Source: a virus (lineage: Duplodnaviria > Heunggongvirae > Uroviricota > Caudoviricetes). From it: 14,349 bases of DNA. The position numbers and the translations under genes are program-made. Below the pieces are notes generated by a model. The model was not told where the DNA came from, made no database searches, and saw nothing but the letters and a program-made list of their open reading frames with translations. Location of the stretch: IMG/VR virus record IMGVR_UViG_2585427756_000019; one strand, given 5' to 3'. This document shows, one piece after another, positions 1-14,349 of the stretch. Each line of letters begins with the position of its first letter. The stretch's first letter is position 1.

Positions 1-176
1 TATACGCGCTGTATCTCTTTCTTCAGCCAGTCATCGCGCTGCGCACGGGCACTGCGTTTATCCGGATGATGTCGCTGTTGCTGACAGTGGTAATACGTTG
101 ACGGGGCAATATGCAGTTCGCTGCATAGCGGTCCGACCCCGTACTGCTCACGCAGCTTATCCAGCAGTGGCATCAT
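1..176 (-). CDS. IS3-family transposase OrfB, N-terminal part only (truncated by window edge)
   Basis: Minus-strand translation from 176 gives [58 protein letters not shown]..., a conserved IS3-family OrfB N-terminus. It is in the -1 frame overlapping the OrfA stop. Confidence 0.8.
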
Positions 177-499
177 TTTTTCCAGAGGCGGTCGAACTCC
201 GCCTTCGCAAAATAAGCGGAAGCCTGGCGAAGGATATCGTTACTGCGGCGCAGTTCACGATTTTCACGCTCCAGCTCTTTCAGACGCTGACGTTCAGCGG
301 TGGTGAGCCCTCCATCACCGCCCCCGGTATCCCGCTCATGCTGGCGAACCCAGACACGCAGAGTCTCCGGCGTACAGCCAATCTTTGGAGCAATGGAACA
401 AATTGTCGCCCATTGTGAGTCATATTCGCCCTGACTTTCCAGAACCATACGGACTGCCCGTTGACGGACTTCAGGGGAAAAACGAGTATTTTTAGTCAT
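173..499 (-). CDS. IS3-family transposase OrfA (helix-turn-helix and leucine-zipper subunit), IS629-like
   Basis: The 108-aa [59 protein letters not shown]... matches my recollection of IS629/IS1203 OrfA. It starts 5 bp inside the inverted repeat after an AGGA ribosome-binding site. Confidence 0.9.
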
Positions 500-553
500 C
501 CTGTTTACCTCTTTCTCAGGAAGTTTAGTCTCCAGGATTCCCGGGGCGGTTCA

Positions 554-1253
554 AACTGTACGTCGACTGATACAGCGGATTAACGAGATAATGATTTACG
601 CTGTAAACACTGGTCTGATTGATGCCAATCCAGCATCGGGGGTTGGGATGGCCTTTGAGAAGCCCAAAAAGCAAAACATGCCAACATTGCGGCCAGAAGA
701 ATTGCCGAAGCTGATGCGTTCTTTAGCTATGTCAAACCTATCTGTTTCGACTCGCTGTCTCATTGAATGGCAACTCCTGACACTTGTGCGTCCTTCTGAA
801 GCCTCTGGTGCTCGTTGGGCAGAGCTCGATCTTGATACAAAGCTCTGGACTATTCCGGCAGAGAGAATGAAAGCCAAACGAGAGCACATTGTTCCTTTAT
901 CACCCCAAGCTTTAGATATTTTGGAAGTGATGAAGCCCATCAGTGCTCATCGTGAACATATTTTTCCTAGCAGAAATGATCCTAAGCAATCAATGAATAG
1001 CCAAACTGCTAATGCAGCTTTAAAACGTATTGGTTTTGGAGGAAAGCTAGTTGCTCATGGCCTCCGATCTATTGCAAGTACAGCAATGAATGAAGCTGGG
1101 TTCAATGCGGATGTTATTGAAGCAGCTTTAGCTCACAGTGATAAAAATGAAGTTCGTAAAGCCTATAATCGTTCAACCTACCTGGTTCAAAGAAAAGATT
1201 TAATGAACTGGTGGGGATTATTTTGTATTAGTTCGAAGAGTGTGAATAAATGA
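554..1253 (+). pseudogene. int: P4-family tyrosine integrase, C-terminal catalytic part only; 5' part separated by the IS insertion
   Basis: The reading frame is open from the first base after the IS repeat (554) to the stop at 1251-1253. It contains the HxxR box (HGLRS) and the C-terminal VRKAYNRSTYLVQRKDLMNWW motif typical of P4-type integrases. The ATG at 591 in the ORF track is only the first in-frame Met. Confidence 0.8.
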
Positions 1254-2887
1254 ATACTTATAAGCAAACCATTAAACAAAAATCAAGATTAAACATATGG
1301 GAAACAGCTATCGCAAGGTTGACAACCCAAGCTGAGAGCTCAAGAATCTTAGAATCAAACTATTTAACAAATCTTATAGATTTTTGTTGGAAAGATACAC
1401 TAAATCAAGTTGCTATATATGATGAGAGCATTGTATTACGCAATGGTTATAATTGGGTGCAAAAAATAAGTGATAGTTATAAACCTAAAGCTGCAAGTGA
1501 ACTAAAGATTGCTTTCTTTTGCGGCCCTGAACCAGAAAATGACTTGGATATACTCTTATCATTAGATGTTAGAATAGAAAATATCTGGGCTTTTGAAATT
1601 GATAACAATTCATATAACACTGCCTTACAAAAAGCTAAAGAGTTCTATCCAAAATTAAAAATATTCCCTGGTTCTATTGGGGAGTTTTTTAAAACCACAC
1701 ATCATACCTTTGATATTATTTACCTTGATTTTACAAGTTCGTTATTGACTAAAAAGAGCCCTCCCCTTGGAGTAATAAACTCTGTATTTGACAATCAGGC
1801 CCTATCAGACTTAGGGGTGTTAATTGTAAACTCTTGCGAACCCGATGCTAACGAAGATAACGCAACATTTCTTGCAAGTTATTTCATGAATCACGAAATA
1901 ATTGAATCATCTGTAATTAACAAAACTAATGATGATGATTATGATGATAACTATGATTATTTTTCACTTTTTATTGAATCCCCCACATCACAAGGATACG
2001 ATGATATAAAGTCATTAGCAAAAGTTATAAAGACTAACATATCCGGAGCGTACTCTGCCTTTTCAACAAGTTATGTAATGCACTATGCTTCAATGATTAG
2101 TCCAACACTTCGTTTTCTACAAAATAACTCATTAAAAAGACAATTATTTAATGATAAAAAAGCTGAAGTAACTGCAACCTTTGCAGAAATTGGATCAACT
2201 GACTTTTTCAAAACATTAATATCAACAGATGGTGAAGCATCGTCCCCCTCCATTTTAGGAAACAGATTCCTAGATAATGAAAGCTACCCATTCTGGAATT
2301 TCATTGATTCATTAAATGGCTCAGGAACAAGTATTTCATCTTACTTTAAGAGCTTTTTCACCACCGCTAAAGAAGGTGTATCCATTTTAAATGCCGTGCA
2401 ATTTCGGGAATCATTTCACTCAATGCTTACAGGAGCTAGAAAGCTATTATCTCAGCGAATGCTCAATGCAATACCCCAAATAATAAAAGCAATTCCTGAT
2501 GCTAGAGGTGGTTTATTCTGTGACATTCCTTTACCCCACCTTTGGTTAGAGGTGGCACTTAATCAGTTAGGTGCACCATACCATGTAAACGTGAAAATGC
2601 ATAATCGATGGAAATATAAAGCAAAAACTCGCACAATGCATACGGACTTATTTGTTTTTGATAGATGCAGAGGTTTTTATGACTCAATGCCTATGATAGA
2701 TCAATACGAAACGATTCTTACTAACATCGAAGAACAAATTTTCGCTAGGTGTTGTATTGATATTATTGGTAAGCAATGTCGTTGGCCAACTCCAAAACTT
2801 TATTTTGGTTCGAACCTAATTGGAATAAACGAGTCTGATTGGTCTGAGTTCGCCGAACTTCGTGAAAGAGAAATTATAAAAGAATAA
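1250..2887 (+). CDS. Hypothetical 545-aa protein of unrecognised family; cargo gene in the int-cos slot of the satellite (candidate anti-phage defence protein)
   Basis: Long uninterrupted ORF whose ATG overlaps the integrase stop (ATGA at 1250-1253). Spot counts give about 22-32% GC, against clearly GC-rich backbone. The N-terminal third shows a beta-alpha alternation with FFCGPEPEND and FDIIYLDF motifs (Rossmann or methyltransferase-like, tentative). There is an acidic DDDYDDNYDYF tract mid-protein. No family assigned. Confidence 0.8.
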   Translation: MNTYKQTIKQKSRLNIWETAIARLTTQAESSRILESNYLTNLIDFCWKDTLNQVAIYDESIVLRNGYNWVQKISDSYKPKAASELKIAFFCGPEPENDLDILLSLDVRIENIWAFEIDNNSYNTALQKAKEFYPKLKIFPGSIGEFFKTTHHTFDIIYLDFTSSLLTKKSPPLGVINSVFDNQALSDLGVLIVNSCEPDANEDNATFLASYFMNHEIIESSVINKTNDDDYDDNYDYFSLFIESPTSQGYDDIKSLAKVIKTNISGAYSAFSTSYVMHYASMISPTLRFLQNNSLKRQLFNDKKAEVTATFAEIGSTDFFKTLISTDGEASSPSILGNRFLDNESYPFWNFIDSLNGSGTSISSYFKSFFTTAKEGVSILNAVQFRESFHSMLTGARKLLSQRMLNAIPQIIKAIPDARGGLFCDIPLPHLWLEVALNQLGAPYHVNVKMHNRWKYKAKTRTMHTDLFVFDRCRGFYDSMPMIDQYETILTNIEEQIFARCCIDIIGKQCRWPTPKLYFGSNLIGINESDWSEFAELREREIIKE

Positions 2888-2902
2888 ATCTCCACGCGCG
2901 CA

Positions 2903-2921
2903 GTGCTTTCCCCGCCTCGCC
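2903..2921. other. cos: P2/P4 cos cohesive-end sequence (19 nt)
   Basis: GTGCTTTCCCCGCCTCGCC is the exact reverse complement of the P2/P4 cohesive end GGCGAGGCGGGGAAAGCAC (recalled). It lies between the cargo gene and psu, as in P4. Confidence 0.8.
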
Positions 2922-2945
2922 CCCCCCCTTTGCGGGGGGGGTTTT
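2920..2945 (+). terminator. G/C homopolymer hairpin (C9-tttgc-G8) followed by TTTT; possible terminator for the cargo gene and/or part of the cos packaging region
   Basis: Run of 9 C at 2920-2928, loop TTTGC, run of 8 G at 2934-2941, then TTTT at 2942-2945. Confidence 0.4.
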
Positions 2946-3023
2946 AATGCAGTTGCACTGACACGCTCAGACCGCGCCGGGAATGGCGCGGTTTGCAGAA
3001 AATGAGGCAGGGAAACGCATGCA

Positions 3024-3056
3024 AAGCCATGCACCTTATCGATGCATGGCTTTTTT
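3024..3056. terminator. Stem-loop with flanking T/A tracts between the convergent cargo gene and psu; candidate bidirectional terminator
   Basis: AAGCCATGCA (3024-3033), 9-nt loop, TGCATGGCTT (3043-3052), followed by a T run to 3056 on the plus strand. On the minus strand it is followed by TTTG. Confidence 0.45.
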
Positions 3057-3086
3057 CAGTAAAAACGGGCGGATTTTCGGGGAATT

Positions 3087-3659
3087 TTACACTGACTGAC
3101 GTGATGCAAGTTGCGCACTTTTACGCGAAAAAATCATGTTCTGCGCAGGGGTGAATTTTTCACGGCTGTCATCCACCGAAGCCACGTCAGGCCTGAATCC
3201 GATGGTCGTTAAAATGTCGCTATCCTGTGCGGAATAATTAATTTTTTCACCCTTCGCAAGCCAGGACAGAAGGGCTTCACGCAGGGCATCTGTGGCACGC
3301 TGTATGGCACAGTTTCGGGCAATGGCCGTCAGCTCACTGTAGCCCATCAGCTCCGGTGCCAGTGCGGCCGCCAGTACTGTGCCGTGCTGCTGCATAAAAT
3401 CATTCAGCCGGTCGCGGATGCTGATGTGCTGAACGGCTTCATGCGAACGAATATAACGACCGGCGGCCTGATTCACCTGCCATTTTCTGACTTCGATAAT
3501 ATTGCGTAATTCGTCCAGGCGGCTGACGTTTCTGCCTTCTCCTGACAGAAGCCGCAGATATTCCTGTTCGGCCGCTGCCAGCTCATTTTTGCGTTGCAGC
3601 CATGCTGCTTTGTTATTCTGACAGGTGTCAAAGGCCTGCTGTAAGGCTGTGCTTTCCAT
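3087..3659 (-). CDS. psu: Polarity suppression protein Psu (capsid decoration / Rho antagonist), P4-like
   Basis: 190-aa ORF beginning MESTALQQAFDTCQNNKAAWLQRKNELAAAEQEYLRLL..., matching P4 Psu in length and recalled sequence. It is last in the sid-delta-psu operon. Confidence 0.9.
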   Translation of the reverse strand: MESTALQQAFDTCQNNKAAWLQRKNELAAAEQEYLRLLSGEGRNVSRLDELRNIIEVRKWQVNQAAGRYIRSHEAVQHISIRDRLNDFMQQHGTVLAAALAPELMGYSELTAIARNCAIQRATDALREALLSWLAKGEKINYSAQDSDILTTIGFRPDVASVDDSREKFTPAQNMIFSRKSAQLASRQSV

Positions 3660-3732
3660 CGTTATCTCTTTCTCATCATGCTGAAGAATAAAAATACGGT
3701 GTGCGGCGACGGCCGGGGTTAACCGGCAGCCC

Positions 3733-4233
3733 TCATTCCAGACGCAGCGAATATGATTGTGTTTTTAACCGTACTGGCGGCAGTTCCTGTTTTTCATGCA
3801 GGCGTTCTGCCAGTTCGTCCGGCGTGACCGGGCGGACAATGAAGCGGGTGATGGTCTGAAGCGTTTTAAACACCAGACCACAGTCCGGATCCGTGCACAC
3901 ATAAAAACGCTCGGTGACTTCCTGAGACAGACGCCGCGATGTTCTTGACAGCGCAAGGCCTTTACATCTCCGACAACAATATCCGGTAACAAGCATTCTT
4001 TTCGGGCGTTTCATACTGCCGGAGGCTGACGTCAGTGAATCGCGGTATCTCTGTTTGCCTGAAATGTATTCCATTCCTGAATCTTTACTGTCAGAGAAAA
4101 AGCTTTCACTCGCTTCAAATGTCGCAGAGCAATAAATATTCCGGCACTGTGCAATCATTATCTTGGTGCCATCGTCCATGAAATGTGCGCGACGGGTGTG
4201 AGCAACATGTCCACACGACGGGCAGTAAATCAT
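3733..4233 (-). CDS. delta: Delta late-gene transcriptional activator (tandem Ogr-like zinc-finger domains), P4-like
   Basis: 166 aa with two Cys-rich Ogr-type modules (MIYCPSCGHVAHTRRAH...QCRNIYCSATF and ...YCCRRCKG...YVCTDPDCGLVF). Its start overlaps the sid stop (ATGA at 4230-4233). Confidence 0.9.
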   Translation of the reverse strand: MIYCPSCGHVAHTRRAHFMDDGTKIMIAQCRNIYCSATFEASESFFSDSKDSGMEYISGKQRYRDSLTSASGSMKRPKRMLVTGYCCRRCKGLALSRTSRRLSQEVTERFYVCTDPDCGLVFKTLQTITRFIVRPVTPDELAERLHEKQELPPVRLKTQSYSLRLE

Positions 4234-4964
4234 GACAGCAGTCCTCTGGCCTTAAGCTCTGCTCCCTGCTGGTCTATTTTGTCCTGCCACACCTTGCGCT
4301 GTGCCGGTGTGCCTGCCACCTCATAATCCATGTGCGGGAGTGTTGCCGCTGACAGTCCGGTCAGCCGGAGAACCGGCTCGCCGGTGAGGCTGATTTGCAT
4401 CTGTTTAATTTTCTGTTCCAGCGATGATTTCACCTGCTGCATGACAGCTTTATCGGGTGCGACGTAGCCCTGATGGCCGGTGGTGTTGGCGAGCGGATTT
4501 TCCTGTACCAGGATACTCAGATGCATTGCCCGGACAAGCGCCTCACAGGTTTCATTCAGGGCGTGTTCCAGCTCATGCTCTGCATACAGACTCAGAAGGT
4601 GATGATGTGCCTTCCGGTAGGCGGTGGCCGTGCTGTCACACGCCCCTTTCAGGCGTTCACGTTCGAAATTCAGCACCACGGCCAGATTGTCATATTCCTG
4701 TACCAGCTCCCGGCGTGCCACGCGCTCAATGTGGCGCTGTTTCAGCTCGTCGCTCAGGACACCACCGGCTGCACGAAAGGCCGTGCGCCAGTCGTCAGCG
4801 TCGTTTCCGTTGGCCTGCGTCAGCGCATTTTTTTCCTGCTCTGCCCGTTCAATGGCCGTGATGGTCTCATCCATCAGGCGGGCGTTCTCAAGATGAGCGG
4901 CTCTGGCCTTTTCCAGTTGTGCCAGTGCGGGTTGCAGATATTCAGGGATGGTGTTGTCAGACAT
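4230..4964 (-). CDS. sid: Sid external scaffold / capsid size determination protein, P4-like
   Basis: Start assigned to the second Met (MSDNTIPEYLQPALAQLEKARAAH...), which gives 244 aa as in P4 Sid and is preceded by GAGGAG at 7-nt spacing. The upstream ATG at 4982 overlaps that ribosome-binding site. Confidence 0.9.
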   Translation of the reverse strand: MSDNTIPEYLQPALAQLEKARAAHLENARLMDETITAIERAEQEKNALTQANGNDADDWRTAFRAAGGVLSDELKQRHIERVARRELVQEYDNLAVVLNFERERLKGACDSTATAYRKAHHHLLSLYAEHELEHALNETCEALVRAMHLSILVQENPLANTTGHQGYVAPDKAVMQQVKSSLEQKIKQMQISLTGEPVLRLTGLSAATLPHMDYEVAGTPAQRKVWQDKIDQQGAELKARGLLS

Positions 4965-5036
4965 TTTCCGGCTCCTCGTCACTTCAGGTTAAGAAAATTG
5001 TGACGTACACCGGACAACAACACGACGCATTGCAGA

Positions 5037-5054
5037 TGTGCCAGCCCTGACACA
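5037..5054 (-). promoter_or_regulatory. Psid-type late promoter activator site: TGT-N12-ACA dyad (Ogr/Delta binding element)
   Basis: TGTgccagccctgacACA has perfect TGT-N12-ACA spacing. On the minus strand a CACAAT -10-like hexamer lies about 46 nt downstream of the dyad centre, putting the dyad near -55 of a predicted start about 27 nt upstream of the sid ATG. Confidence 0.55.
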
Positions 5055-5133
5055 GGAGACTCATCCTCACACCGGCAAGCCAGGAAAAGGTCGCAGGAAA
5101 AACCGGCTTACTGTTTGTTTTTTTATATTTTAC

Positions 5134-5237
5134 TGTTCACCTCTGTTCACCATAAGAAAAAAGATAAGTAATACAGTAAGTTAAAGGGTGAACAATCGCA
5201 GTAATGACTGTTCACCGTCTGTTCACCACTGTTCACC
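5134..5237. repeat. ori: ori-like iteron cluster: six copies of the octamer TGTTCACC (five direct, one inverted), candidate alpha-protein binding sites
   Basis: TGTTCACC at 5134-5141, 5144-5151, 5209-5216, 5220-5227 and 5230-5237; GGTGAACA (inverted) at 5187-5194. This matches the recalled P4 ori with six type I repeats, located between Psid and the rightward operon. Confidence 0.7.
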
Positions 5238-5516
5238 CGTTGATGGGCTTTTTGTGCTGTTTATTACTGTTTATTTTTATTAATTCGCCGGGAATGAATA
5301 AGAAAAAACGATTTGTATTTCACTATAAAAATTACGAATTGCTTTAAGTGGCTTTAAATGACTTTAAGTGGAGATGAACAAAAAACACACAAGCATTGTA
5401 AGGCTGCCGGAACAAATCCCCCCTGTTGCGTCTGCCAAAAATATTCACAAAATAAAGCGCTACCCGAAGCCGGACGGACTTATCCGGTGCTGTATGGACA
5501 TTAACGAGGTAGCCCG

Positions 5517-5783
5517 ATGCAAGCTGTTTTTTCTTCCCCGTCTCCCGCCCCTGTGACGCCACTGATGCCGCTGCCGGACATCACGCAGGAACGTTTTTTA
5601 CGTCTGCCGGAAGTAATGCACCTGTGCGGCCTGTCACGCTCGACCATCTATGAACTCATCCGTAAGGGGGAATTTCCGCCGCAGGTGAGTCTTGGCGGTA
5701 AAAATGTGGCCTGGCTGCACTCTGAAGTCACCGCATGGATGGCCGGGCGCATTGCCGGACGCAAACGGGGGTACGACGCATGA
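5517..5783 (+). CDS. vis: AlpA/Vis-family small DNA-binding protein (excisionase / transcriptional regulator), P4 orf88-like
   Basis: 88 aa with a GAGG ribosome-binding site 7 nt upstream. The core [47 protein letters not shown] is characteristic of the AlpA helix-turn-helix family. Confidence 0.8.
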
Positions 5784-5875
5784 TGATGCCCGCTCTGCAA
5801 AAACTCCCTTTTTCTGGCTTGCCTTTTTTCGGCATTTGCGGATATAGTTTTCCCGCTGCCGCAAAATCGGCAGCC

Positions 5876-6171
5876 GGGCGTGGAAACCCGAGCAATCTAA
5901 CGGCGACATATGACGCGCCATGCGTCTTTTTTTGTGTCGCAATCAACGCCACAGAGCGCCAGATTATGGTGTGGTGTGTGGTCAGTCGAGCAGATGGCAC
6001 TCCGTGCATCCTGCCCGCGTCCGCTCATTATGCCGCAGGGTCAATGGTAGCTCAGGCGGGGCAGCCTCCGGGCTGGCCGGTATCCGTTAGAGCCGGTATT
6101 TCCACCCCCGTCTGGGCTATCGCCATCGAGCGTGGAAACTCCGGCGATAGCGTAACCTGCTATCTAACGGA
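5876..6171 (+). ncRNA. cI: Putative P4-type RNA immunity leader (cI-like RNA region with seqA / seqB / seqC complementary elements); boundaries approximate
   Basis: Two similar segments containing CGTGGAAAC...ATCTAACGG (5876-5903 and 6129-6171) flank a segment CCGTTAGAGCCGGTATTTCCACCC (6085-6108) that is largely their reverse complement. This recalls the seqA-seqB-seqC arrangement of the P4 immunity region downstream of vis. Confidence 0.35.
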
Positions 6172-6181
6172 GGCTGCCATC

Positions 6182-6379
6182 ATGGCTACAACCCTTACCC
6201 CTTCACACCCTGAATTTGTCTTTGTGTTTGCGGCTGTCCGTCGCGCAGACCGTCATCCCCGTATCTGCATGCTTCGCACCGTCGCCGGTGATGAACGCAG
6301 TGCCCGCCGTTCCCTTGTCCGTGACTATGTGCTCTCCCTTGCTGCCCGTCTGCCGGTGGTGGAGGTGTCCCGTGCGTAA
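6182..6379 (+). CDS. Small hypothetical protein of the satellite left operon (position of P4 kil/eta); 65 aa
   Basis: ATG preceded by GGAGG at about 8 nt. The stop overlaps the start of the next ORF. The ORF-track 214-aa call (5735-6379) is an over-extension through GC-rich sequence. Confidence 0.4.
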
Positions 6380-6659
6380 TAAAAAAGCCCCTCAGACCGT
6401 CTCAGCACGTCATGACGCCCGTGAACACCTCAGCATTGAGGCTTACCATAAGCTCAACCGCGCCAGCGCCGTATCCCAGTTTGTTGGGGGTGATTTGATT
6501 CACCGTGAACTCTCCGGCCTGCATCAGCTCTACATTCCGCATATTTTCAGCTACCTGAATGAAGATATTGATTTTGTGCTGAATGAGCTGAAAGCCAAAG
6601 GCCTGTGCCGCGATTTTCTCGCCCAGCAGAAAGACCGGGGAGACAGGACGCATGTTTGA
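6372..6659 (+). CDS. Epsilon-like small protein (P4 helper-derepression protein position); 95 aa from a GTG start
   Basis: GTG start 4-5 nt after GGAGGTG. The 95-aa product ([28 protein letters not shown]...) agrees in length and position with my recollection of P4 epsilon. Its stop overlaps the next start. Confidence 0.5.
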
Positions 6660-7107
6660 TTTTCCCCAGCCCGGTGAGATTTACCGTTCTGCCGGTTTTC
6701 CCGATGTGGCCGTGGTCGGCATTCTGGAAGACGGTATTCCGTGGGAAATGCCGTACCGCTGCCCGGACATTGTCTGGAACCCGTACCGCCGTAAATTCAG
6801 TATCCTTGTGCGTATCCTCGCTGACGGGCGCACCACAGACATCCCGCTGGGGCGTTTTCTGCGGGAATTTACCTGTGACCGTCCTGACCTGTTTAAACGC
6901 AGCCCCGTAAACCGGCATGCGGTACTGAAAGAAATGGCCGGAGACCCGGAATTACAGAAATGGCGGGAGAAATATCTGGATATTTACCCGCAGGACACTG
7001 TTCCGGTCAGCCGGGCGGCACCGGTGGCGCGGGAATGGCGGGAAATTCCCCGCACGGAGCCTGACCCGGAAATCACCCCGGATAACAGTTACCGCAATTA
7101 TCTGTAA
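6652..7107 (+). CDS. Hypothetical protein, P4 orf151-like
   Basis: 151 aa, exactly the recalled P4 orf151 length. Start overlaps the upstream stop (operon coupling). Confidence 0.7.
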   Translation: MFDFPQPGEIYRSAGFPDVAVVGILEDGIPWEMPYRCPDIVWNPYRRKFSILVRILADGRTTDIPLGRFLREFTCDRPDLFKRSPVNRHAVLKEMAGDPELQKWREKYLDIYPQDTVPVSRAAPVAREWREIPRTEPDPEITPDNSYRNYL

Positions 7108-7242
7108 TTAAAAAACGACACCCGAAAAATTAAATGTGCGTATTCGCGCAGGGATACGCACGTCTTCAGGAGACGCAGATATGCCTTATCAGTTAATGCA
7201 ACCGGCACGGAATGCAGTCATCTGTCACAGGGAGGAAAACAA

Positions 7243-7563
7243 ATGAAAACACCCTTACCGCCCGTCTTACGCGCTGCCCTTTACCGTCGCGCTGTCGCCT
7301 GTGCCTGGCTGACCGTGTGCGAACGTCAGCACCGCTACCCGCATCTCACCCTTGAGTCACTGGAAGCGGCCATCGCCGCTGAGCTGGAAGGCTTTTATCT
7401 GCGCCAGCACGGTGAGGAAAAAGGGCGTCAGATAGCCTGTGCCCTGCTGGAAGATTTAATGGAATCCGGCCCCCTGAAGGCCGCGCCGTCGCTGTCCTTT
7501 CTCGGGCTGGTTGTGATGGATGAACTCTGTGCCCGTCACATAAAAGCGCCGGTACTGCACTGA
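7243..7563 (+). CDS. Hypothetical protein immediately upstream of alpha (P4 orf106-like)
   Basis: 106-aa ORF with GGGAGG ribosome-binding site about 8 nt upstream. Same strand and operon as alpha. Confidence 0.65.
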
Positions 7564-7577
7564 AGGAGAACAACACC

Positions 7578-9911
7578 ATGAAAATGAACGTAACCGCCAC
7601 CGTCAGCCATGCGCTCGGCCACTGGCCGCGTATTCTCCCGGCGCTGGGGATTCAGGTGCTGAAAAACCGTCATCAGCCCTGTCCGGTCTGTGGCGGGAGT
7701 GACCGCTTCCGTTTTGATGACAGGGAGGGGCGCGGCACCTGGTACTGCAATCAGTGTGGTGCCGGTGACGGCCTGAAACTGGTTGAAAAGGTGTTTGGTG
7801 TCTCCCCGTCCGACGCGGCCGCAAAGGTGGCTGCCGTGACCGGCAGCCTGCCCCCGGCTGACCCGGCAGTGACGGCTGCCGCCGGTGCTGAAACAGACGC
7901 TGCCCGGAAGAACGCCGCCGCACTGGCACAAACCCTGATGGCGAAAACCCGTCCCGGAACCGGTAACGCCTACCTGACCCGCAAGGGCTTTCCCGGCCGG
8001 GAATGCCGGATGCTGACCGGCACACACAGAGCCGGTGGCGTGAGCTGGCGTGCCGGTGACCTTGTGGTGCCACTGTATGACGACAGCGGCGAACTGGTTA
8101 ACCTTCAGTTAATCAGTGCTGACGGCCGTAAGCGCACCCTGAAAGGCGGACAGGTCAGGGGCACCTGTCACACCCTTGAAGGACAGAATCAGGCCGGAAA
8201 ACGTCTGTGGATAGCGGAGGGATACGCGACCGCACTTACCGTGCATCACCTGACCGGTGAAACGGTGATGGTGGCGCTTTCTTCCGTGAACCTCCTTTCT
8301 CTGGCCAGCCTTGCCCGGCAGAAGCATCCGGCCTGTCAGATTGTCCTTGCCGCAGACCGTGACCTCAGCGGTGACGGCCAGAAAAAAGCCGCCGCAGCCG
8401 CAGATGCGTGTGAAGGTGTTGTTGCCCTGCCGCCGGTCTTCGGTGACTGGAATGATGCCTTCACGCAGTACGGCGGGGAGGCCACCCGTAAGGCCATTTA
8501 CGATGCCATCCGGCCACCGGCTGAAAGCCCGTTCGACACCATGAGTGAAGCGGAGTTTTCCGCCATGAGTACCAGCGAAAAGGCCATGCGTATCTATGAG
8601 CATTACGGCGAGGCGCTCGCGGTCGATGCCAACGGCCAGCTTCTGTCCCGCTATGAAAATGGTGTCTGGAAGGTGCTGCCGCCACAGGACTTTGCCCGGA
8701 ATGTGGCCGGGCTGTTTCAGCGGCTGCGCGCGCCGTTCTCCTCCGGGAAGGTGGCCTCCGTGGTGGACACCCTGAAGCTGATTATTCCGCAGCAGGAAGC
8801 CCCCTCCCGCTGCCTGATTGGCTTTCGTAACGGCGTGCTCGACACGCAGAACGGCACGTTCCACCCGCACAGTCCGTCACACTGGATGCGTACCCTGTGC
8901 GATGTGGATTTCACCCCGCCGGTGGAAGGGGAAACGCTGGAAACCCACGCCCACGCGTTCTGGCGCTGGCTTGACCGTGCCGCCGGTGGCCGTGCGGAAA
9001 AACGCGACGTGATTCTGGCCGCACTGTTTATGGTGCTGGCAAACCGCTATGACTGGCAGCTCTTTCTGGAGGTGACCGGTCCCGGCGGCAGCGGCAAAAG
9101 TATCATGGCCGAAATAGCCACCCTGCTGGCCGGGGAGGATAACGCCACGTCGGCCACCATTGAGACGCTGGAATCCCCGCGTGAACGTGCCGCGTTAACT
9201 GGCTTCTCACTGATACGCCTGCCGGACCAGGAAAAATGGAGCGGCGACGGAGCCGGACTCAAGGCCATCACCGGCGGCGATGCAGTGTCCGTTGACCCGA
9301 AATACCGGGATGCGTACTCCACGCATATCCCGGCGGTGATTCTGGCCGTGAACAATAACCCGATGCGCTTCACCGACCGCAGCGGCGGCGTGTCACGCCG
9401 GCGGGTGATTATTCACTTCCCGGAACAGATAGCCCCGCAGGAGCGCGACCCGCAGCTTAAGGACAAAATCACCCGCGAGCTGGCGGTCATCGTGCGTCAC
9501 CTGATGCAGAAGTTCAGCGACCCGATGCTCGCCCGGTCACTGCTTCAGTCCCAGCAGAACTCAGACGAGGCACTGAACATCAAACGGGATGCCGACCCGA
9601 CGTTTGATTTTATCGGCTATCTGGAAACCCTGCCGCAGACCAGCGGCATGTATATGGGGAACGCCAGTATCATCCCGCGTAATTACCGTAAATACCTCTA
9701 TCACGCCTATCTGGCCTACATGGAGGCAAACGGCTACCGGAATGTACTCAGTCTGAAAATGTTCGGGCTGGGGCTGCCGGTGATGCTGAAGGAATACGGA
9801 CTGAATTACGAGAAGCGCCATACCAAACAGGGGATACAGACCAACCTGACACTGAAAGAGGAAAGCTACGGCGACTGGCTGCCAAAATGTGACGCCCCTG
9901 CAACAACCTGA
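7578..9911 (+). CDS. alpha: Alpha protein: bifunctional primase / SF3 helicase with C-terminal origin-binding domain, P4-like
   Basis: 777 aa, the P4 alpha length. N-terminal zinc-binding motif CPVCGGSDRFRFDDREGRGTWYCNQCG, Walker A GPGGSGKS at LEVTGPGGSGKSIMAEIA, AAGGAG ribosome-binding site upstream. Confidence 0.95.
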   Translation: MKMNVTATVSHALGHWPRILPALGIQVLKNRHQPCPVCGGSDRFRFDDREGRGTWYCNQCGAGDGLKLVEKVFGVSPSDAAAKVAAVTGSLPPADPAVTAAAGAETDAARKNAAALAQTLMAKTRPGTGNAYLTRKGFPGRECRMLTGTHRAGGVSWRAGDLVVPLYDDSGELVNLQLISADGRKRTLKGGQVRGTCHTLEGQNQAGKRLWIAEGYATALTVHHLTGETVMVALSSVNLLSLASLARQKHPACQIVLAADRDLSGDGQKKAAAAADACEGVVALPPVFGDWNDAFTQYGGEATRKAIYDAIRPPAESPFDTMSEAEFSAMSTSEKAMRIYEHYGEALAVDANGQLLSRYENGVWKVLPPQDFARNVAGLFQRLRAPFSSGKVASVVDTLKLIIPQQEAPSRCLIGFRNGVLDTQNGTFHPHSPSHWMRTLCDVDFTPPVEGETLETHAHAFWRWLDRAAGGRAEKRDVILAALFMVLANRYDWQLFLEVTGPGGSGKSIMAEIATLLAGEDNATSATIETLESPRERAALTGFSLIRLPDQEKWSGDGAGLKAITGGDAVSVDPKYRDAYSTHIPAVILAVNNNPMRFTDRSGGVSRRRVIIHFPEQIAPQERDPQLKDKITRELAVIVRHLMQKFSDPMLARSLLQSQQNSDEALNIKRDADPTFDFIGYLETLPQTSGMYMGNASIIPRNYRKYLYHAYLAYMEANGYRNVLSLKMFGLGLPVMLKEYGLNYEKRHTKQGIQTNLTLKEESYGDWLPKCDAPATT

Positions 9912-9918
9912 CCCACCT

Positions 9919-9944
9919 GACCGGCATCTGCCGGTCTTTTTTTT
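9919..9944 (+). terminator. Rho-independent terminator after alpha
   Basis: GACCGGC / GCCGGTC stem with a 4-nt loop, followed by eight T (9937-9944), starting 8 nt after the alpha stop. Confidence 0.65.
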
Positions 9945-9960
9945 ATCCCGACATCCCCCG

Positions 9961-10260
9961 AAGGTGAACAATCCAGTGTTCACCCTTCACCGTATATTCA
10001 CCCGTTATCATACTGAAATTAAAAGAGAAAAACGAAAGGTGAACAGTGTGAACAATCAAATCAAAAAAAACTTTTTTCTTCCTGAGTGATTTCAGTACGG
10101 GGGATTAATCACCGGTATGAGTCACACCGACAGAATGCCGGAGGTGAAGAATCGAATGTTCACCCTTCACCCATTATTCACCACCTATCACTCTGAAATA
10201 AAAGGAGAAAAAAGAAAGGTGAACAGTGTGAACAGTTCTTTCGAAAAAAAATTTTTTTCC
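9961..10260. repeat. crr: crr-like cis replication region: two roughly 120-bp direct repeats at 180-bp period, each with TGTTCACC / GGTGAACA iterons
   Basis: Units 9961-10082 and 10141-10260 align with high identity at an offset of exactly 180 bp. Each carries GGTGAACA, TGTTCACC, GGTGAACA and GTGTGAACA motifs. This matches the recalled P4 crr (two 120-bp repeats, 60-bp spacer) about 4.5-4.8 kb from ori. Confidence 0.7.
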
Positions 10261-10513
10261 TGTACGATATAGCATCAATCCAAGTAAAAATGCGCTTTCA
10301 TTTCACATTAACTTACAGCCATTGGTATACGATTAGGTATACGCACAAAAACTGAATTAAACAAAATCATTAAAAATCAAAGCAATACAATATTTATTCA
10401 AACTCCGCCAGCCATGATTGGACGGTGTAAGGACAACACCAACAAAAACAGGAAGTTAGAAGTCTCAGCAAAACACCGACCAGACGGTGAGGAGACATAA
10501 AAGGATACGCAAA

Positions 10514-10565
10514 GGAGCCGCGGCTCCTGGTAACATGAAAGCCCACAGATGTGGGCTTTTTCGTT
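10514..10565. terminator. Two tandem stem-loops downstream of the autotransporter stop (perfect 14-bp palindrome GGAGCCGCGGCTCC and AGCCCAC..GTGGGCT followed by TTTTT on the plus strand)
   Basis: Palindrome at 10514-10527. Hairpin at about 10540-10560 with T5 on the plus strand. Sits between convergent transcription units. Confidence 0.4.
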
Positions 10566-10570
10566 GATGG

Positions 10571-13500
10571 TCAGAACGACCAGTTCACACCAGCTACCGC
10601 GTTCCACGGGGATTCCACACCGGCACTATGGCTATACCCCACCCCAAGATGCCCGCTTAACGTACTGCTGAATGAGGCTTTAATACCTGCCTGGTATATT
10701 CCACGTCTGCCCGACAAATAATTGACGAAATTACCGTCACTATTCACTTTCACCCGGTTATCATCGACAAATTCTTTGCGCACAGCCGCCTTCAGCCACG
10801 GCTCAACTTCCATACCGTTCCCCAGACGCATGTTGTAACTCAGCGTTGCGCCCAGTTCACGATATATACTGCGGGTATCGACTGATTTCGATTTCATGCC
10901 ATTGGATAAATGATATTCGGGGTTATCAGCGGTGAACCCCGTTAACGATGCATACGGCGTCAGGTTCCAGTTACCATCGGTAAATCGCATCCCGGTTTCA
11001 ATGTGACCGCCCAGCCCGTTGCTGTGGTAACTGCCATTGGCGGCTCCACCGCTGCTCATTTTACCTGCTACGTTACTTTTAAAACGGTTCAGCTTCACGA
11101 CACCGTCCAGATAGAAACCACTTTCATGTTCCCAACTGGCATAGCCGCCCAGAGAATAACTGCCCACACTGCCATGTCCTCCGCGATCAAAACCGATATG
11201 TGAATGGGAATAGCCCATAAAAGCGCCTAGCGTGGTAATTCCTTCAGGAATATCATTACGGCTGTCGATCCCCACTGTCATTCCGGTCAGCGTCTGCTCA
11301 AACCCGGCACCCGCATCGGTGGTGACATTATTACGGGTGTTATACGTCGCCCCCCAGACATTATTGTTGTGTGGACTCGCTTTCATTATGTTCAACCGCT
11401 CGCGAATACTGTTTAGCTCAGCATCAAATACCAACGGTAATGTTGCTGCCATATTGAGTACGGCTGCCGTAGAAGGCGTAATGCGTTTCTCCGGAACGGG
11501 TGTCGGCGTTGGATCGGGAGTAGGGTCTGGTTTTGGATTTGGGTCTGGCTTTGGATCGGGTTTTGGGTCTGGCTTTGGATTTGGGATGGGGTCCGGGTTG
11601 GGTTTGACATCATTGGTCAGGTTCCAGTTGCTGTTGCCGTCACTTTTCAGGACATACTCATAGGTCCCAAGATCAACGAAACCGCCGGTATTGCCCAGCG
11701 TAAACGAAGCATCCCCTCCCCCTGTTTTCACCAGCGTCATCGCGTCGTCAGACTGTGGGCTGACGCCGGTATCCTGAACAAAGATTTTAAAATTACCAGT
11801 GGCGTTGTTGTTGACGACCAGTTGATCGCCCCGGGAGCCTGCAACGTTGGTATGCAGGTAGAAATTACCGCTACCGGAAAGTTCATTGGTTGTCAGCGTA
11901 TTGTAGATACCGTTAGTTGTGGCAGGCGCTGCTGTTTGTGCTGACAAATAAACATCACCGTCGTTGAGTAGCAAACTGTTTACTCTATATTCGCAGTTGC
12001 TGGTACCTGCACAGGAATTATTGCTGTTAAGCCAGACACTGCCCCGGCTGGCAGCCGTCAGGTCGGCAAGCGTGGTATCGACGCCATTTCCCAGAGTCAA
12101 TGTCGCGCTATCGGTAATCCGGACCGCCCCTTCGAGTTTAACTGGCGTAACATTATCCCGTGGCGTCATTAACGACAGGCTTCCTGTCGCGCCACTGACC
12201 GATGCATCCGCCAGCGTACCTGCGTAGACGATTGCCGTACCGCCAGCGACCTGGAGATCTTCTGCCCGGGCCAGAGCCTGAAACTCATCTTTTGACCGCC
12301 CAAGGGTATATTGCCCGCCAGAGTTAACCTTTGTGGCGGAGTCCTGACCCAGGTTTTGCATTGCCCCACCCTTGCCAACCGTGGAGTCGCGAGCTTCGGT
12401 ACCTGCTAATACCAATAAATTACCGCCATTTTCCAGCAACATATTGGTCGCTAAATTGCCGGAAATGGAAAAAGTACCGTACTGGTGAGTACCGCTGATT
12501 TCAATACCGTTAGCCGTGCTCGTCTGGAGAGCGGCACCGCTGTTCTGGACGATATCTGTCGCTTTGCCATTATCGTTGACTGTCAGCGTACCGCCTTCAT
12601 TGATCTTTGTTTTTATTGCCTCTCCGTTAGCTGAAACTGTTTGTATTCCGCCGTCGTTAATTGTTGTCTCATTCGCCACACCCTCGACAATTTGTTCACC
12701 GCCGGTGAGCGTCGTGCCTGTCGCAGTGGCTTTTGTTTTGACGATCTCCCGTCCGCCCATATTGACCTGTGTTTTGTCAGAAGAGGTGTCTGACTCCACG
12801 GTTAACACGCCGCCATTTGCCAGCAGGATATTGTTCGCCGCACCCTGCTCGATGCTGAACGCGACGCCATCCGCGCGTGTTCCTGTGACCCGCGTCGCCC
12901 TGGTGGTTGCAACCAAAGCGCCCTGGCTACTCTGCTGTATCCCCGTTGCGCTGCCTTTCTCCCGCACATCGAGTGTGCCGCCGTCATTAAGCACCGAGTT
13001 TTCAGCCAGACCGCCCTCATTAACTACCTGTGAACCCCCATTAATAATGGAACCTTCCGCTGTCCCGTTTGCCATAATTTGTTGTAGGCCAGAGACGATA
13101 TCGGTATTGATTGCCTTACCATAATTCTGAACGGTTTGCGTGCCACCATTGATGTGTGTTTTCTCTGTTGACCCACCATCAACAATTTGTTCACCACTTT
13201 CGATATTTGCTTCAGTGGCTAAACCATATACCGTTTGCTTGCCACCTTTGATATTTGCTTTATCAGAAGTGGCACTGGCATATATTGTTTGGGTGCCAGC
13301 ACTATTGAGTACAGTGCCAACATCTTTTCCATAAACATCCATTTTGCCGTTGGCATTAATAATCGTGTCAACTGCGCGGGAACCAGTGACGACTGTTAAT
13401 GAGCCAGCGTTTTCCAGCACTACATTTTTAGCTTCTGAATTCCTGATGTAGAAAGCATCACCATAACTGTTGGTTCCTTCGATAAGTGTTCCGGAGGTCG

Positions 13501-13718
13501 TGGAAGCAATTAATGCGCCGCCGGATTGTTGCTCAACATGCTTAGCCTCACCACCGTCCTGAACCTCCAGAACGCCGCCATTATTAAGTCTGGTGCTATC
13601 TGTTTTAGCCTCCTTCTGGACAATCAGCTTACCGCCAGTATCAATGGTAGTATTTTTCGCCGAGGTTTTAGCCACTACCGTCAGTTCGCCGGTATTTTCC
13701 AGCACAACATAATTAGCC
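10571..13718 (-). pseudogene. AIDA-I/Ag43-type autotransporter adhesin (beta-helical passenger, Pro-rich linker, C-terminal beta-barrel); 5' end removed by the IS10 insertion
   Basis: C-terminus ...NAVAGVNWSF is an autotransporter barrel signature. Linker PNPDPIPNPKPDPKPDPKPDPNPKPDPTPDPTPTPVP. The passenger has Gly-rich beta-helix repeats. The apparent N-terminus MCIHLNLMIFTKIIRGF is encoded by the IS10 end and there is no signal peptide, so the ORF is a fusion artefact. Confidence 0.85.
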
Positions 13719-14349
13719 CTGATGAATCCCCTAATGATTTTGGTAAAAATCATTAAGTTAAGGTGGATACACATCTTGTCATATGATCAAATGGTTTCGC
13801 GAAAAATCAATAATCAGACAACAAGATGTGCGAACTCGATATTTTACACGACTCTCTTTACCAATTCTGCCCCGAATTACACTTAAAACGACTCAACAGC
13901 TTAACGTTGGCTTGCCACGCCTTACTTGACTGTAAAACTCTCACTCTTACCGAACTTGGCCGTAACCTGCCAACCAAAGCGAGAACAAAACATAACATCA
14001 AACGAATCGACCGATTGTTAGGTAATCGTCACCTCCACAAAGAGCGACTCGCTGTATACCGTTGGCATGCTAGCTTTATCTGTTCGGGCAATACGATGCC
14101 CATTGTACTTGTTGACTGGTCTGATATTCGTGAGCAAAAACGACTTATGGTATTGCGAGCTTCAGTCGCACTACACGGTCGTTCTGTTACTCTTTATGAG
14201 AAAGCGTTCCCGCTTTCAGAGCAATGTTCAAAGAAAGCTCATGACCAATTTCTAGCCGACCTTGCGAGCATTCTACCGAGTAACACCACACCGCTCATTG
14301 TCAGTGATGCTGGCTTTAAAGTGCCATGGTATAAATCCGTTGAGAAGCT
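13719..14349 (+). mobile_element. IS10 (IS4 family; Tn10-type), outside end plus 5' half of the transposase, continues past window end
   Basis: From 13719 the sequence reads CTGATGAATCCCCTAATGATTTTGGTAAAAATCATTAAG..., the IS10 terminal sequence as I recall it. Confidence 0.9.
13826..14349 (+). CDS. IS10 transposase, N-terminal part (open to window end)
   Basis: ATG at 13826 translates to MCELDILHDSLYQFCPELHLKRLNSLTLACHALLDCKTLTLTELGRNLPTKARTK..., the IS10 transposase N-terminus. Not listed in the ORF track because there is no stop in the window. Confidence 0.9.
   Translation, partial: MCELDILHDSLYQFCPELHLKRLNSLTLACHALLDCKTLTLTELGRNLPTKARTKHNIKRIDRLLGNRHLHKERLAVYRWHASFICSGNTMPIVLVDWSDIREQKRLMVLRASVALHGRSVTLYEKAFPLSEQCSKKAHDQFLADLASILPSNTTPLIVSDAGFKVPWYKSVEK

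Follow-up and report, generated by a model that had tools for sequence, protein, structure and literature searches.

The locus described here raises the question of why a run of nine C's, followed by TTTGC, eight G's and four T's, stands at the edge of a cohesive-end (cos) site, and whether this string is a transcription terminator, part of the DNA read by a terminase, or a flaw in the deposited sequence. It lies in a 14,349-nt stretch of viral DNA (Caudoviricetes; IMG/VR record IMGVR_UViG_2585427756_000019), referred to below in its entirety as the window. Our overall answer, to which we assign a probability of roughly 0.7, is that the window carries a P4-type cos site in which an inverted repeat beside the cohesive end would be recognized as duplex DNA, and that the C9/G8 string is a private and probably artefactual allele of that repeat.

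The Satellite and Its Gene Layout

The plus strand of the window corresponds to the minus orientation of P4, and its genes follow P4 order from psu to alpha. These are psu, which closes the P4 late operon and reads towards cos (3087-3659, minus strand; Pfam Psu, 3.9e-88), delta (3733-4233, minus strand; Pfam Ogr_Delta), an ORF at the position of sid that is syntenic with P4 (4230-4982, minus strand), an AlpA-type gene to the right of that ORF (Pfam AlpA), a P4 immunity RNA region (Rfam c4-a1b1, isrK and C4), and the alpha primase-helicase gene (7578-9911; Pfam primase/D5 domains). Over the cos-psu spacer and the 3' end of psu, P4 and the window share 97.7% DNA identity. An earlier reading of this DNA from its letters alone (the sequence-only reading) had named the element a P4-type satellite, and psu, delta, sid, the C4/CI immunity RNA and alpha bear this out.

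A single 545-aa cargo gene (1250-2887, plus strand), identical to WP_021572920.1, occupies the P4 hotspot, its start overlapping the int stop codon by 4 nt. It is annotated as hypothetical in relatives, has no match in Pfam, PADLOC or NCBIfam, and lies next to cos in only 5 of 5,426 complete E. coli genomes. WP_021572920 is listed as a one-gene "hypothetical" system in a supplementary table of Rousset et al. 2022 (PMC9122126), and the gene is a candidate defence gene that has been catalogued but is uncharacterised. As in the psu-int hotspot, where variable cargo adjoins cos, the cargo ends at 2887 and homology resumes at 2896. The int-cargo-cos slot proposed earlier is thus correct, and was already in print, since int-cargo-cos-psu is the P4 hotspot layout of the same paper (PMC9122126), which lists this cargo.

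In close relatives the satellite lies between ssrA and ypjA or glaH and has an int of 401 aa. In the window, the int ORF adjoining the cargo encodes only the 220-aa C-terminal part, an int 3' fragment (554-1253, plus strand) with the catalytic domain alone (ORF 591-1253; Pfam Phage_integrase, 2.5e-31). The interruption is the terminal part of an IS3-family insertion sequence (1-553, minus strand), which contains an ORF at 173-499 on the minus strand and an Rfam ALIL frameshift pseudoknot at 102-218 on the same strand (120 bits), and which megablast matches to "IS3 family transposase / AL1L pseudoknot" in thousands of E. coli records; homology to uninterrupted int resumes at about 553. The same insertion is found in GCA_964038535.1 (OZ038772.1), GCA_000704145.1 (JNQN01000072.1) and an ENA metagenome contig. 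In the first two, rve/HTH_Tnp_1 genes lie between the two int halves, and in OZ038772.1 the other half lies upstream of the IS.

At the opposite end of the window, homology to intact ypjA stops at 13718. Just beyond, in the region 13719-13833, Rfam identifies RNA-OUT, the IS10 antisense RNA (13764-13833, minus strand, 98.8 bits). An IS10 end appears, from this arrangement, to truncate the ypjA/ehaD autotransporter gene, whose ORF (10571-13774) encodes 1067 aa versus 1526 aa in relatives.

The Cohesive-End Sequence and Its Normal Flank

The sequence GTGCTTTCCCCGCCTCGCC has one exact match in the window, at 2903-2921 on the plus strand, and no match was found in 200 shuffled versions of the window, even with up to three mismatches. 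Reverse-complemented, it is P4 bases 1-19 and P2 cosL and cosR (5'-GGCGAGGCGGGGAAAGCAC-3'), the 19-nt cohesive-end sequence quoted in PMC3931495, and the P2 record annotates cosL and cosR on this 19-mer. The register also agrees with both genomes. P4 bases 19-1 fall on 2903-2921 and P4 base 11624, the last of the linear genome, on 2922, and a Blast alignment pairs window 2924 to 3100 with P4 11622-11447 at 97.7% identity; the P2 junction is alike, with ...GTCAGCGCGCA before the 19-mer, CGCCCGCTTCACGGGGCGGTTTTAATGCA... after it, and GCGCGCA as the left flank. The cos assignment made from the letters alone therefore survives the alignment with P4 and P2 that had been suggested as its check, and the 19-mer is confirmed as the P2/P4 cohesive-end sequence, of which both the sequence and the meaning were already known. 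Judging from the ends of the linear records, we infer that the plus strand is nicked 5' of 2903 and the minus strand between 2921 and 2922. With the minus-strand nick at 2921/2922, the inverted repeat would start where the duplex begins at the psu-side end of the genome, at its first base pair.

How the flank normally reads was determined by scanning IMG/VR for the exact 19-mer, which gave at least 120 loci, about 100 of them P2-like and 19 P4-like; all of these comparison sites were picked by the exact 19-mer, and their diversity is thereby limited. Every listed site (at least 120), as well as P4 and P2, continues from the 19-mer with [C/T]GCCCGC, five variable bases, a GGG[G/T]CGG-like arm, and then TTTTAATGCAG.TGCA. 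Column information over 119 listed cos sites outlines a block at 2896-2957, about 61 bp in all (7 + 19 + about 35), an extent in line with the 55 bp of conserved cos DNA that PMC9594776 and PMC3931495 cite from Ziermann & Calendar 1990. The cos region is the only region common to P2 and P4 (PMC9122126; PMC9594776).

Within the block, the left flank GCGCGCA (2896-2902) has columns 97-100% conserved over the 119 listed sites, and homology to all other P2/P4-type elements begins there, matches to E. coli P4-like elements starting at position 97 of a query taken from 2800. On the other side of the 19-mer, the left arm of the repeat is as invariant as the 19-mer itself (among the 119 listed sites, G2923 100%, G2927 97%, and C2928-T2929-T2930 100%), whereas the right arm is looser (64-96%), with C2938 conserved at 92%. 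The right part of the core (TTTTAATGCAGTTGCAC, 2942-2958) includes a small palindrome, TGCA-GT-TGCA, and among the listed P2-like and P4-like sites its TTTTAATGCA columns are conserved at 0.87-1.00 and TGCA at about 0.9. Measured against this consensus, the window matches the left flank at 7 of 7 positions and has TTTTAATGCAGTTGCA in register, but its arms deviate at G2923, G2927 and C2938 and contain one added base, where near-identical relatives are all canonical.

The C9/G8 String Is Private to the Window

The window reads ...cgcgcgca GTGCTTTCCCCGCCTCGCC ccccccc tttgc gggggggg tttt aatgcagttgcactgac..., so that on the plus strand C9 covers 2920-2928, TTTGC 2929-2933, G8 2934-2941 and TTTT 2942-2945. 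The sequence-only reading had described this string as following cos. It is indeed present, but it is not merely adjacent, because the first two C's (2920-2921) double as the final two bases of the 19-mer. The arms form an 8-nt inverted repeat that is 100% complementary, and the RNA fold is a 9-pair stem of -21.4 kcal/mol (z = -2.6). No other G or C run in the window exceeds 6, and 1.39 Mb of related loci contain just 10 G/C runs of at least 8. The normal form at 2920-2945 is CC-CGCCCGC-TTTGC-GGGGCGG-TTTT.

C9/G8 is present in none of the 120 listed IMG/VR cos sites (at least 120 loci), and of 651 complete E. coli genomes in which the region is present, not one has the window allele, the best being five at 96.0% identity. 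A pattern tolerant of run length, CCTCGCCCCCC..TTTGCGGGGGG..TTTTAATG, had no hit in viral, genome and metagenome collections. Patterns for a single arm matched only two distant P2-like sites (L143 and L145; left arm CCCCCGC) and one metagenome site (L147; G7 right arm), none of them with both arms altered. No recorded protein corresponds to the minus-strand ORF that runs across the hairpin (2816-3034).

From relatives to window, the hairpin shows four changes: G2923 and G2927 have both become C, C has become G at 2938/2939, and one G has been added. In a base-by-base comparison with three of the five best genomes, Z0117EC0055, MMC-J-0105 and LC-1302-2020, the four mismatches in the matched stretch are these hairpin changes. 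They are the only differences from OZ038772.1 (a chromosome) and from JNQN01000072.1 (a draft that is also in IMG/VR), each over 7,254 nt (window 1-7254), and from the ENA metagenome contig over 3.1 kb (window 415-3517); these three belong to the lineage of the window, as they carry the same IS3-family insertion in int. Over longer stretches, Z0117EC0055 (10.0 kb, window 543-10561) differs in the satellite body (553-10413) by the four hairpin changes and a SNP at 6039, MMC-J-0105 (13.2 kb) by the four changes, the SNP at 6039 and one 4-nt indel at 10413, and GCA_036881515.1 (11.8 kb) by the four changes and two positions at 10413-10414. Three mismatches at 548-552 in these last three comparisons were not counted, as they fall at the IS junction, an alignment edge.

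Two polymorphic sites elsewhere in the satellite may be recorded here. At 6039, its sole substitution outside the hairpin, the window has G and both MMC-J-0105 and Z0117EC0055 have A, with GCA_036881515.1 sharing the base of the window; the position is one base before the Rfam C4 match (P4 CI-type immunity RNA, 6040-6127). At 10413-10414, where relatives have CAAT or 9 nt, a small indel polymorphism falls in the spacer that separates alpha from the host flank; it may be in or near an attachment-site repeat.

Judged by these comparisons, C9/G8 is a one-off departure from a flank that is otherwise conserved, carried by no other copy examined. The idea that an unusual pure G/C stem is a feature of this kind of cos site consequently has to be given up: the normal form is CGCCCGC...GGGGCGG, and the homopolymer stem is a single-sequence anomaly at two of the most conserved flank positions rather than a property of P4 cos.

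Artefact or Mutation

Because no other copy carries C9/G8, it is most likely either a sequence error or a very recent mutation. Of these, an artefact of sequencing or assembly, confined to this site in a G+C-rich palindrome, is the most likely origin, at somewhat better than even odds. The signature is error-like in that the three substitutions are all G/C transversions that extend a homopolymer, accompanied by a 1-nt change in length. The sequence-only reading had warned that homopolymer runs are prone to sequencing error and that their lengths deserve confirmation; the warning was well placed, but the matter is not one of length alone, since it is three G/C substitutions that make the homopolymers in the first place. 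General homopolymer noise was ruled out as a cause, because A8 and T8 runs elsewhere in the window agree with relatives and the remainder of the window has no other indels relative to near-identical relatives. With the window otherwise clean, an artefact would need to be specific to the hairpin site. Counting against an artefact is the fact that the changes at 2923 and 2938/2939 are complementary, so that pairing is kept, and the stem energy is -21.4 kcal/mol in the window versus -13.6 kcal/mol in the canonical form. A stronger paired stem would also result from selection on a hairpin or from hairpin-templated repair.

The competing explanation, possible but a good deal less than an even bet, is that C9/G8 is real, a recent mutation that altered several bases of the cos flank after the IS in int had immobilised the satellite. 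Such a mutation would either inactivate or alter terminase recognition, as part of decay or domestication, or be tolerated because the inverted repeat is preserved. It would account for a window that is otherwise error-free against near-identical relatives and for the complementary changes at 2923 and 2938/2939 with their stronger stem, and the split int means that selection on cos may be relaxed. A partial counterpart also exists in a separate data set, as in the metagenome P2-type cos L147:107-179 the right arm is G7 while the left arm is normal; the C-to-G change there is thus either natural, as rare variation, or a recurrent context-specific error. Against a real allele stands the clustering of the changes: all four lie within 17 nt, and the remainder of the 7.25 kb is unchanged relative to three assemblies of the same lineage. 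Our own arithmetic gives such clustering a chance of about 1e-7 under independent mutation, which rules out independent drift. The substitutions are, in addition, all G:C to C:G, the rarest class of spontaneous mutation in E. coli, and no second assembly with C9/G8 was found among the 651 E. coli genomes or in the viral, genome and metagenome collections.

Two more specific routes to this sequence were considered and set aside. As a donor for gene conversion, C8TTTGCG8 was sought in one genome per species across 185,579 species, and the 3 matches, in Methylobacterium and two Lewinellaceae MAGs, are all unrelated. A hairpin-templated (quasi-palindrome) template switch would predict CCGCCCCGC or GCGGGCGGG and not homopolymers. 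Three Logan contigs from independent short-read assemblies (L128, L129 and L135) share an end base in the left arm (...CCTCGCCCGCC), 30 nt into the block common to P2/P4 cos sites. A hairpin-related assembly break was rejected as the reason, a repeat break of a k=31 graph being the probable one, so that these contigs say nothing about the hairpin; the shared end is consistent with such a graph breaking where a genome has more than one cos-bearing element.

If real, C9/G8 changes, on the alignment, two near-invariant bases beside the nick. That it is a genuine rewrite of invariant nick-side bases, which preserves and strengthens the stem and has become fixed in a satellite that does not excise, seems improbable to us. 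If this were true, C9/G8 would be a ready-made natural mutant of the cos flank, with which one could ask what P2 terminase reads beside the nick, sequence or shape; alternatively, it would mean that stranded satellites disarm their own cos site.

P2-type packaging is reported to need excision and circularisation, and the intact integrase on which these depend is lacking in the window. Without a working integrase the satellite should not excise and circularise, so that "packageable", the term inferred earlier from the cos sequence, is unproven. It is also overstated in view of an allele that alters two near-invariant flank positions.

Sequence or Hairpin

The repeat has two possible roles, as a sequence or as a folded structure, and natural variation among cos sites distinguishes between them. 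In 80 distinct alleles of the 6-bp stem CCGCCC/GGGCGG, 87.3% of cells are paired versus 87.1% in shuffles, compensatory change is essentially absent with a covariation score not above controls, and 30 of the 80 lack one of the six stem pairs (alignment columns 29 and 42). L143 and L145, distant P2-like cos sites with a variant 19-mer, have CCCCCGC as the left arm and, as the right, GTGTAGG, which is not complementary to it. On this evidence the repeat is kept as a sequence and not as a selected secondary structure. An invariant left arm by the nick, together with the absence of covariation, points to duplex DNA recognized by terminase, and the inverted repeat fits sequence-specific duplex recognition, as we infer it. 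Of the two functions suggested in the sequence-only reading, a part in the terminase recognition region is accordingly the better-fitting one, given the conserved core and the lack of covariation.

Recognition and nicking of P2/P4 cos by the helper terminase are established knowledge. In our reading, window 2896-2957 is the cos site that belongs to a P4-type satellite integrated in an E. coli-like chromosome, at ssrA-ypjA. By analogy with P2 and P4, its duplex of about 55-61 bp would be recognized by the helper terminase (P2 gpM/gpP). The enzyme would nick the two strands at the positions deduced above, 5' of 2903 on the plus strand and between 2921 and 2922 on the minus strand, to leave 19-nt 5' cohesive ends. 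The repeat that begins at the minus-strand nick, with the normal form CCGCCC-GCTTTGCG-GGGCGG followed by TTTTAATGCAG, would belong to the recognition sequence and would act there as sequence-specific duplex DNA rather than as a folded hairpin. C9/G8 would then be a private allele of that repeat, likeliest a site-specific sequencing or assembly artefact and less likely a recent complex mutation.

The other suggested function, a terminator insulating the cargo from the late operon, is unlikely. The hairpin and T-run would form a plus-strand intrinsic terminator that stops int-cargo transcripts at cos and so shields the convergent late operon (psu-delta-sid) from antisense read-through. The location is suitable, with the stem 33 nt downstream of the cargo stop codon, and a pattern scan flags the window allele on the plus strand (8 G-C pairs, tail TTTTAATG) and also the canonical allele of OZ038772.1, the latter only marginally with 6 pairs; the T-run is four T's followed by AAT. 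However, canonical forms are weak as terminators (-13.6 to -9.1 kcal/mol, a 6-bp stem, an 8-nt loop and four U's). Upkeep of the stem by compensatory change, as expected of an intrinsic terminator, is not seen in the 80 alleles, and the pair broken in 30 of them argues in the same direction. The exact sequence is conserved well beyond the T-run (AATGCAGTTGCA) and also in the invariant left arm, which fits recognition by a protein better. Furthermore, P2 has a separate annotated terminator, tQ, about 140 nt before cos, and in P4 gop and beta point away from cos, so that no known transcript reaches cos from that side. The terminator proposal thus comes down to a match at the level of pattern, although a minor moonlighting role where the cargo points towards cos may exist.

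A better terminator-like hairpin lies 80 nt further on. This is the third inverted repeat of the region, AAAGCCATGCA / TGCATGGCTTT followed by a T6 run, situated between cos and the psu stop codon (3023-3056, plus strand). Its 11-nt arms are 100% complementary, it has A3 and T6 flanks, the T6 beginning at 3051, and it is identical in P4; by its sequence it looks like a bidirectional terminator. The pattern scan missed it, which we attribute to a 9-nt loop, as the limit of the scan is 8. Between the two, in the cos-psu spacer, lies a second inverted repeat, CAGACCGCGCC / GGCGCGGTTTG (2968-2995; 11 nt, 91% complementary), which is also present in P4 and is weakly conserved in many P2-like elements at the same distance from cos. 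An Rfam search of 2890-3060 gave no family.

Extrusion of the repeat as a DNA hairpin or cruciform whose shape the terminase reads at the nick site is very improbable: the inverted repeat does begin exactly at the minus-strand nick and the complementarity of its arms is retained in the window allele, but natural variants ignore pairing (80 alleles; L143 and L145; L147), the right arm drifts while the left is invariant, and a 6-bp stem with an 8-nt spacer would make a poor cruciform. Recognition as duplex sequence thus remains our preferred reading of the repeat.

Comparison with Known Systems

One of the closest known systems is the cos site of P4 (NC_001609 / X51522; junction 11624 and 1), which has the same 19-mer in the same register, the left flank GCGCGC[A/G] and TTTTAATGCAGTTGCACTGAC, and the same placement, with an accessory hotspot on one side and psu on the other. 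The two differ in the repeat, which is CGCCCGC-TTTGC-GGGGCGG in P4 and CCCCCCC-TTTGC-GGGGGGGG in the window, and in the hotspot, which holds gop/beta/cII in P4 and one 545-aa gene in the window element. The integrase differs as well, that of the window being of another type, inserting at ssrA and IS-split. The hotspot described by Rousset et al. 2022 (PMC9122126) has the same int-cargo-cos-psu order, the cargo in the window being one without a recognised domain. As the cos site is textbook material and the int-cargo-cos layout is published, nothing new follows from either. It should be noted that C9/G8 itself provides no basis for inferring structure, termination or packaging competence, and should be treated as unverified.

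P2 cos (NC_001895, cosL 1-19 / cosR 33575-33593) and about 100 listed P2-like sites share with the window the 19-mer, the 7-bp left flank and TTTTAATGCA. Their left arm is CGCCCGC, the canonical form, their loop is TTCAT or TTCGT in place of the TTTGC of the window, and divergence sets in beyond 2957. The P2 hotspot (old/tin) and that of the P4 type flank cos on opposite sides. P2 terminase is reported to prefer circular monomers.

Rho-independent terminators resemble the repeat in having a G+C-rich stem and a T-run on the plus strand, flagged in both window and canonical alleles. Unlike them, the repeat has only four T's and no covariation, and its tail and left arm are conserved at the level of sequence. 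The cos site of lambda (cosQ-cosN-cosB) is a functional analogue only, with 12-nt rather than 19-nt ends, no sequence similarity and a terminase of a different family. In lambda, as is well established, a nicking site is accompanied by recognition DNA mainly to one side, and it is in this arrangement, a nicking site with a terminase-recognition flank mainly on one side, that the two systems are alike.
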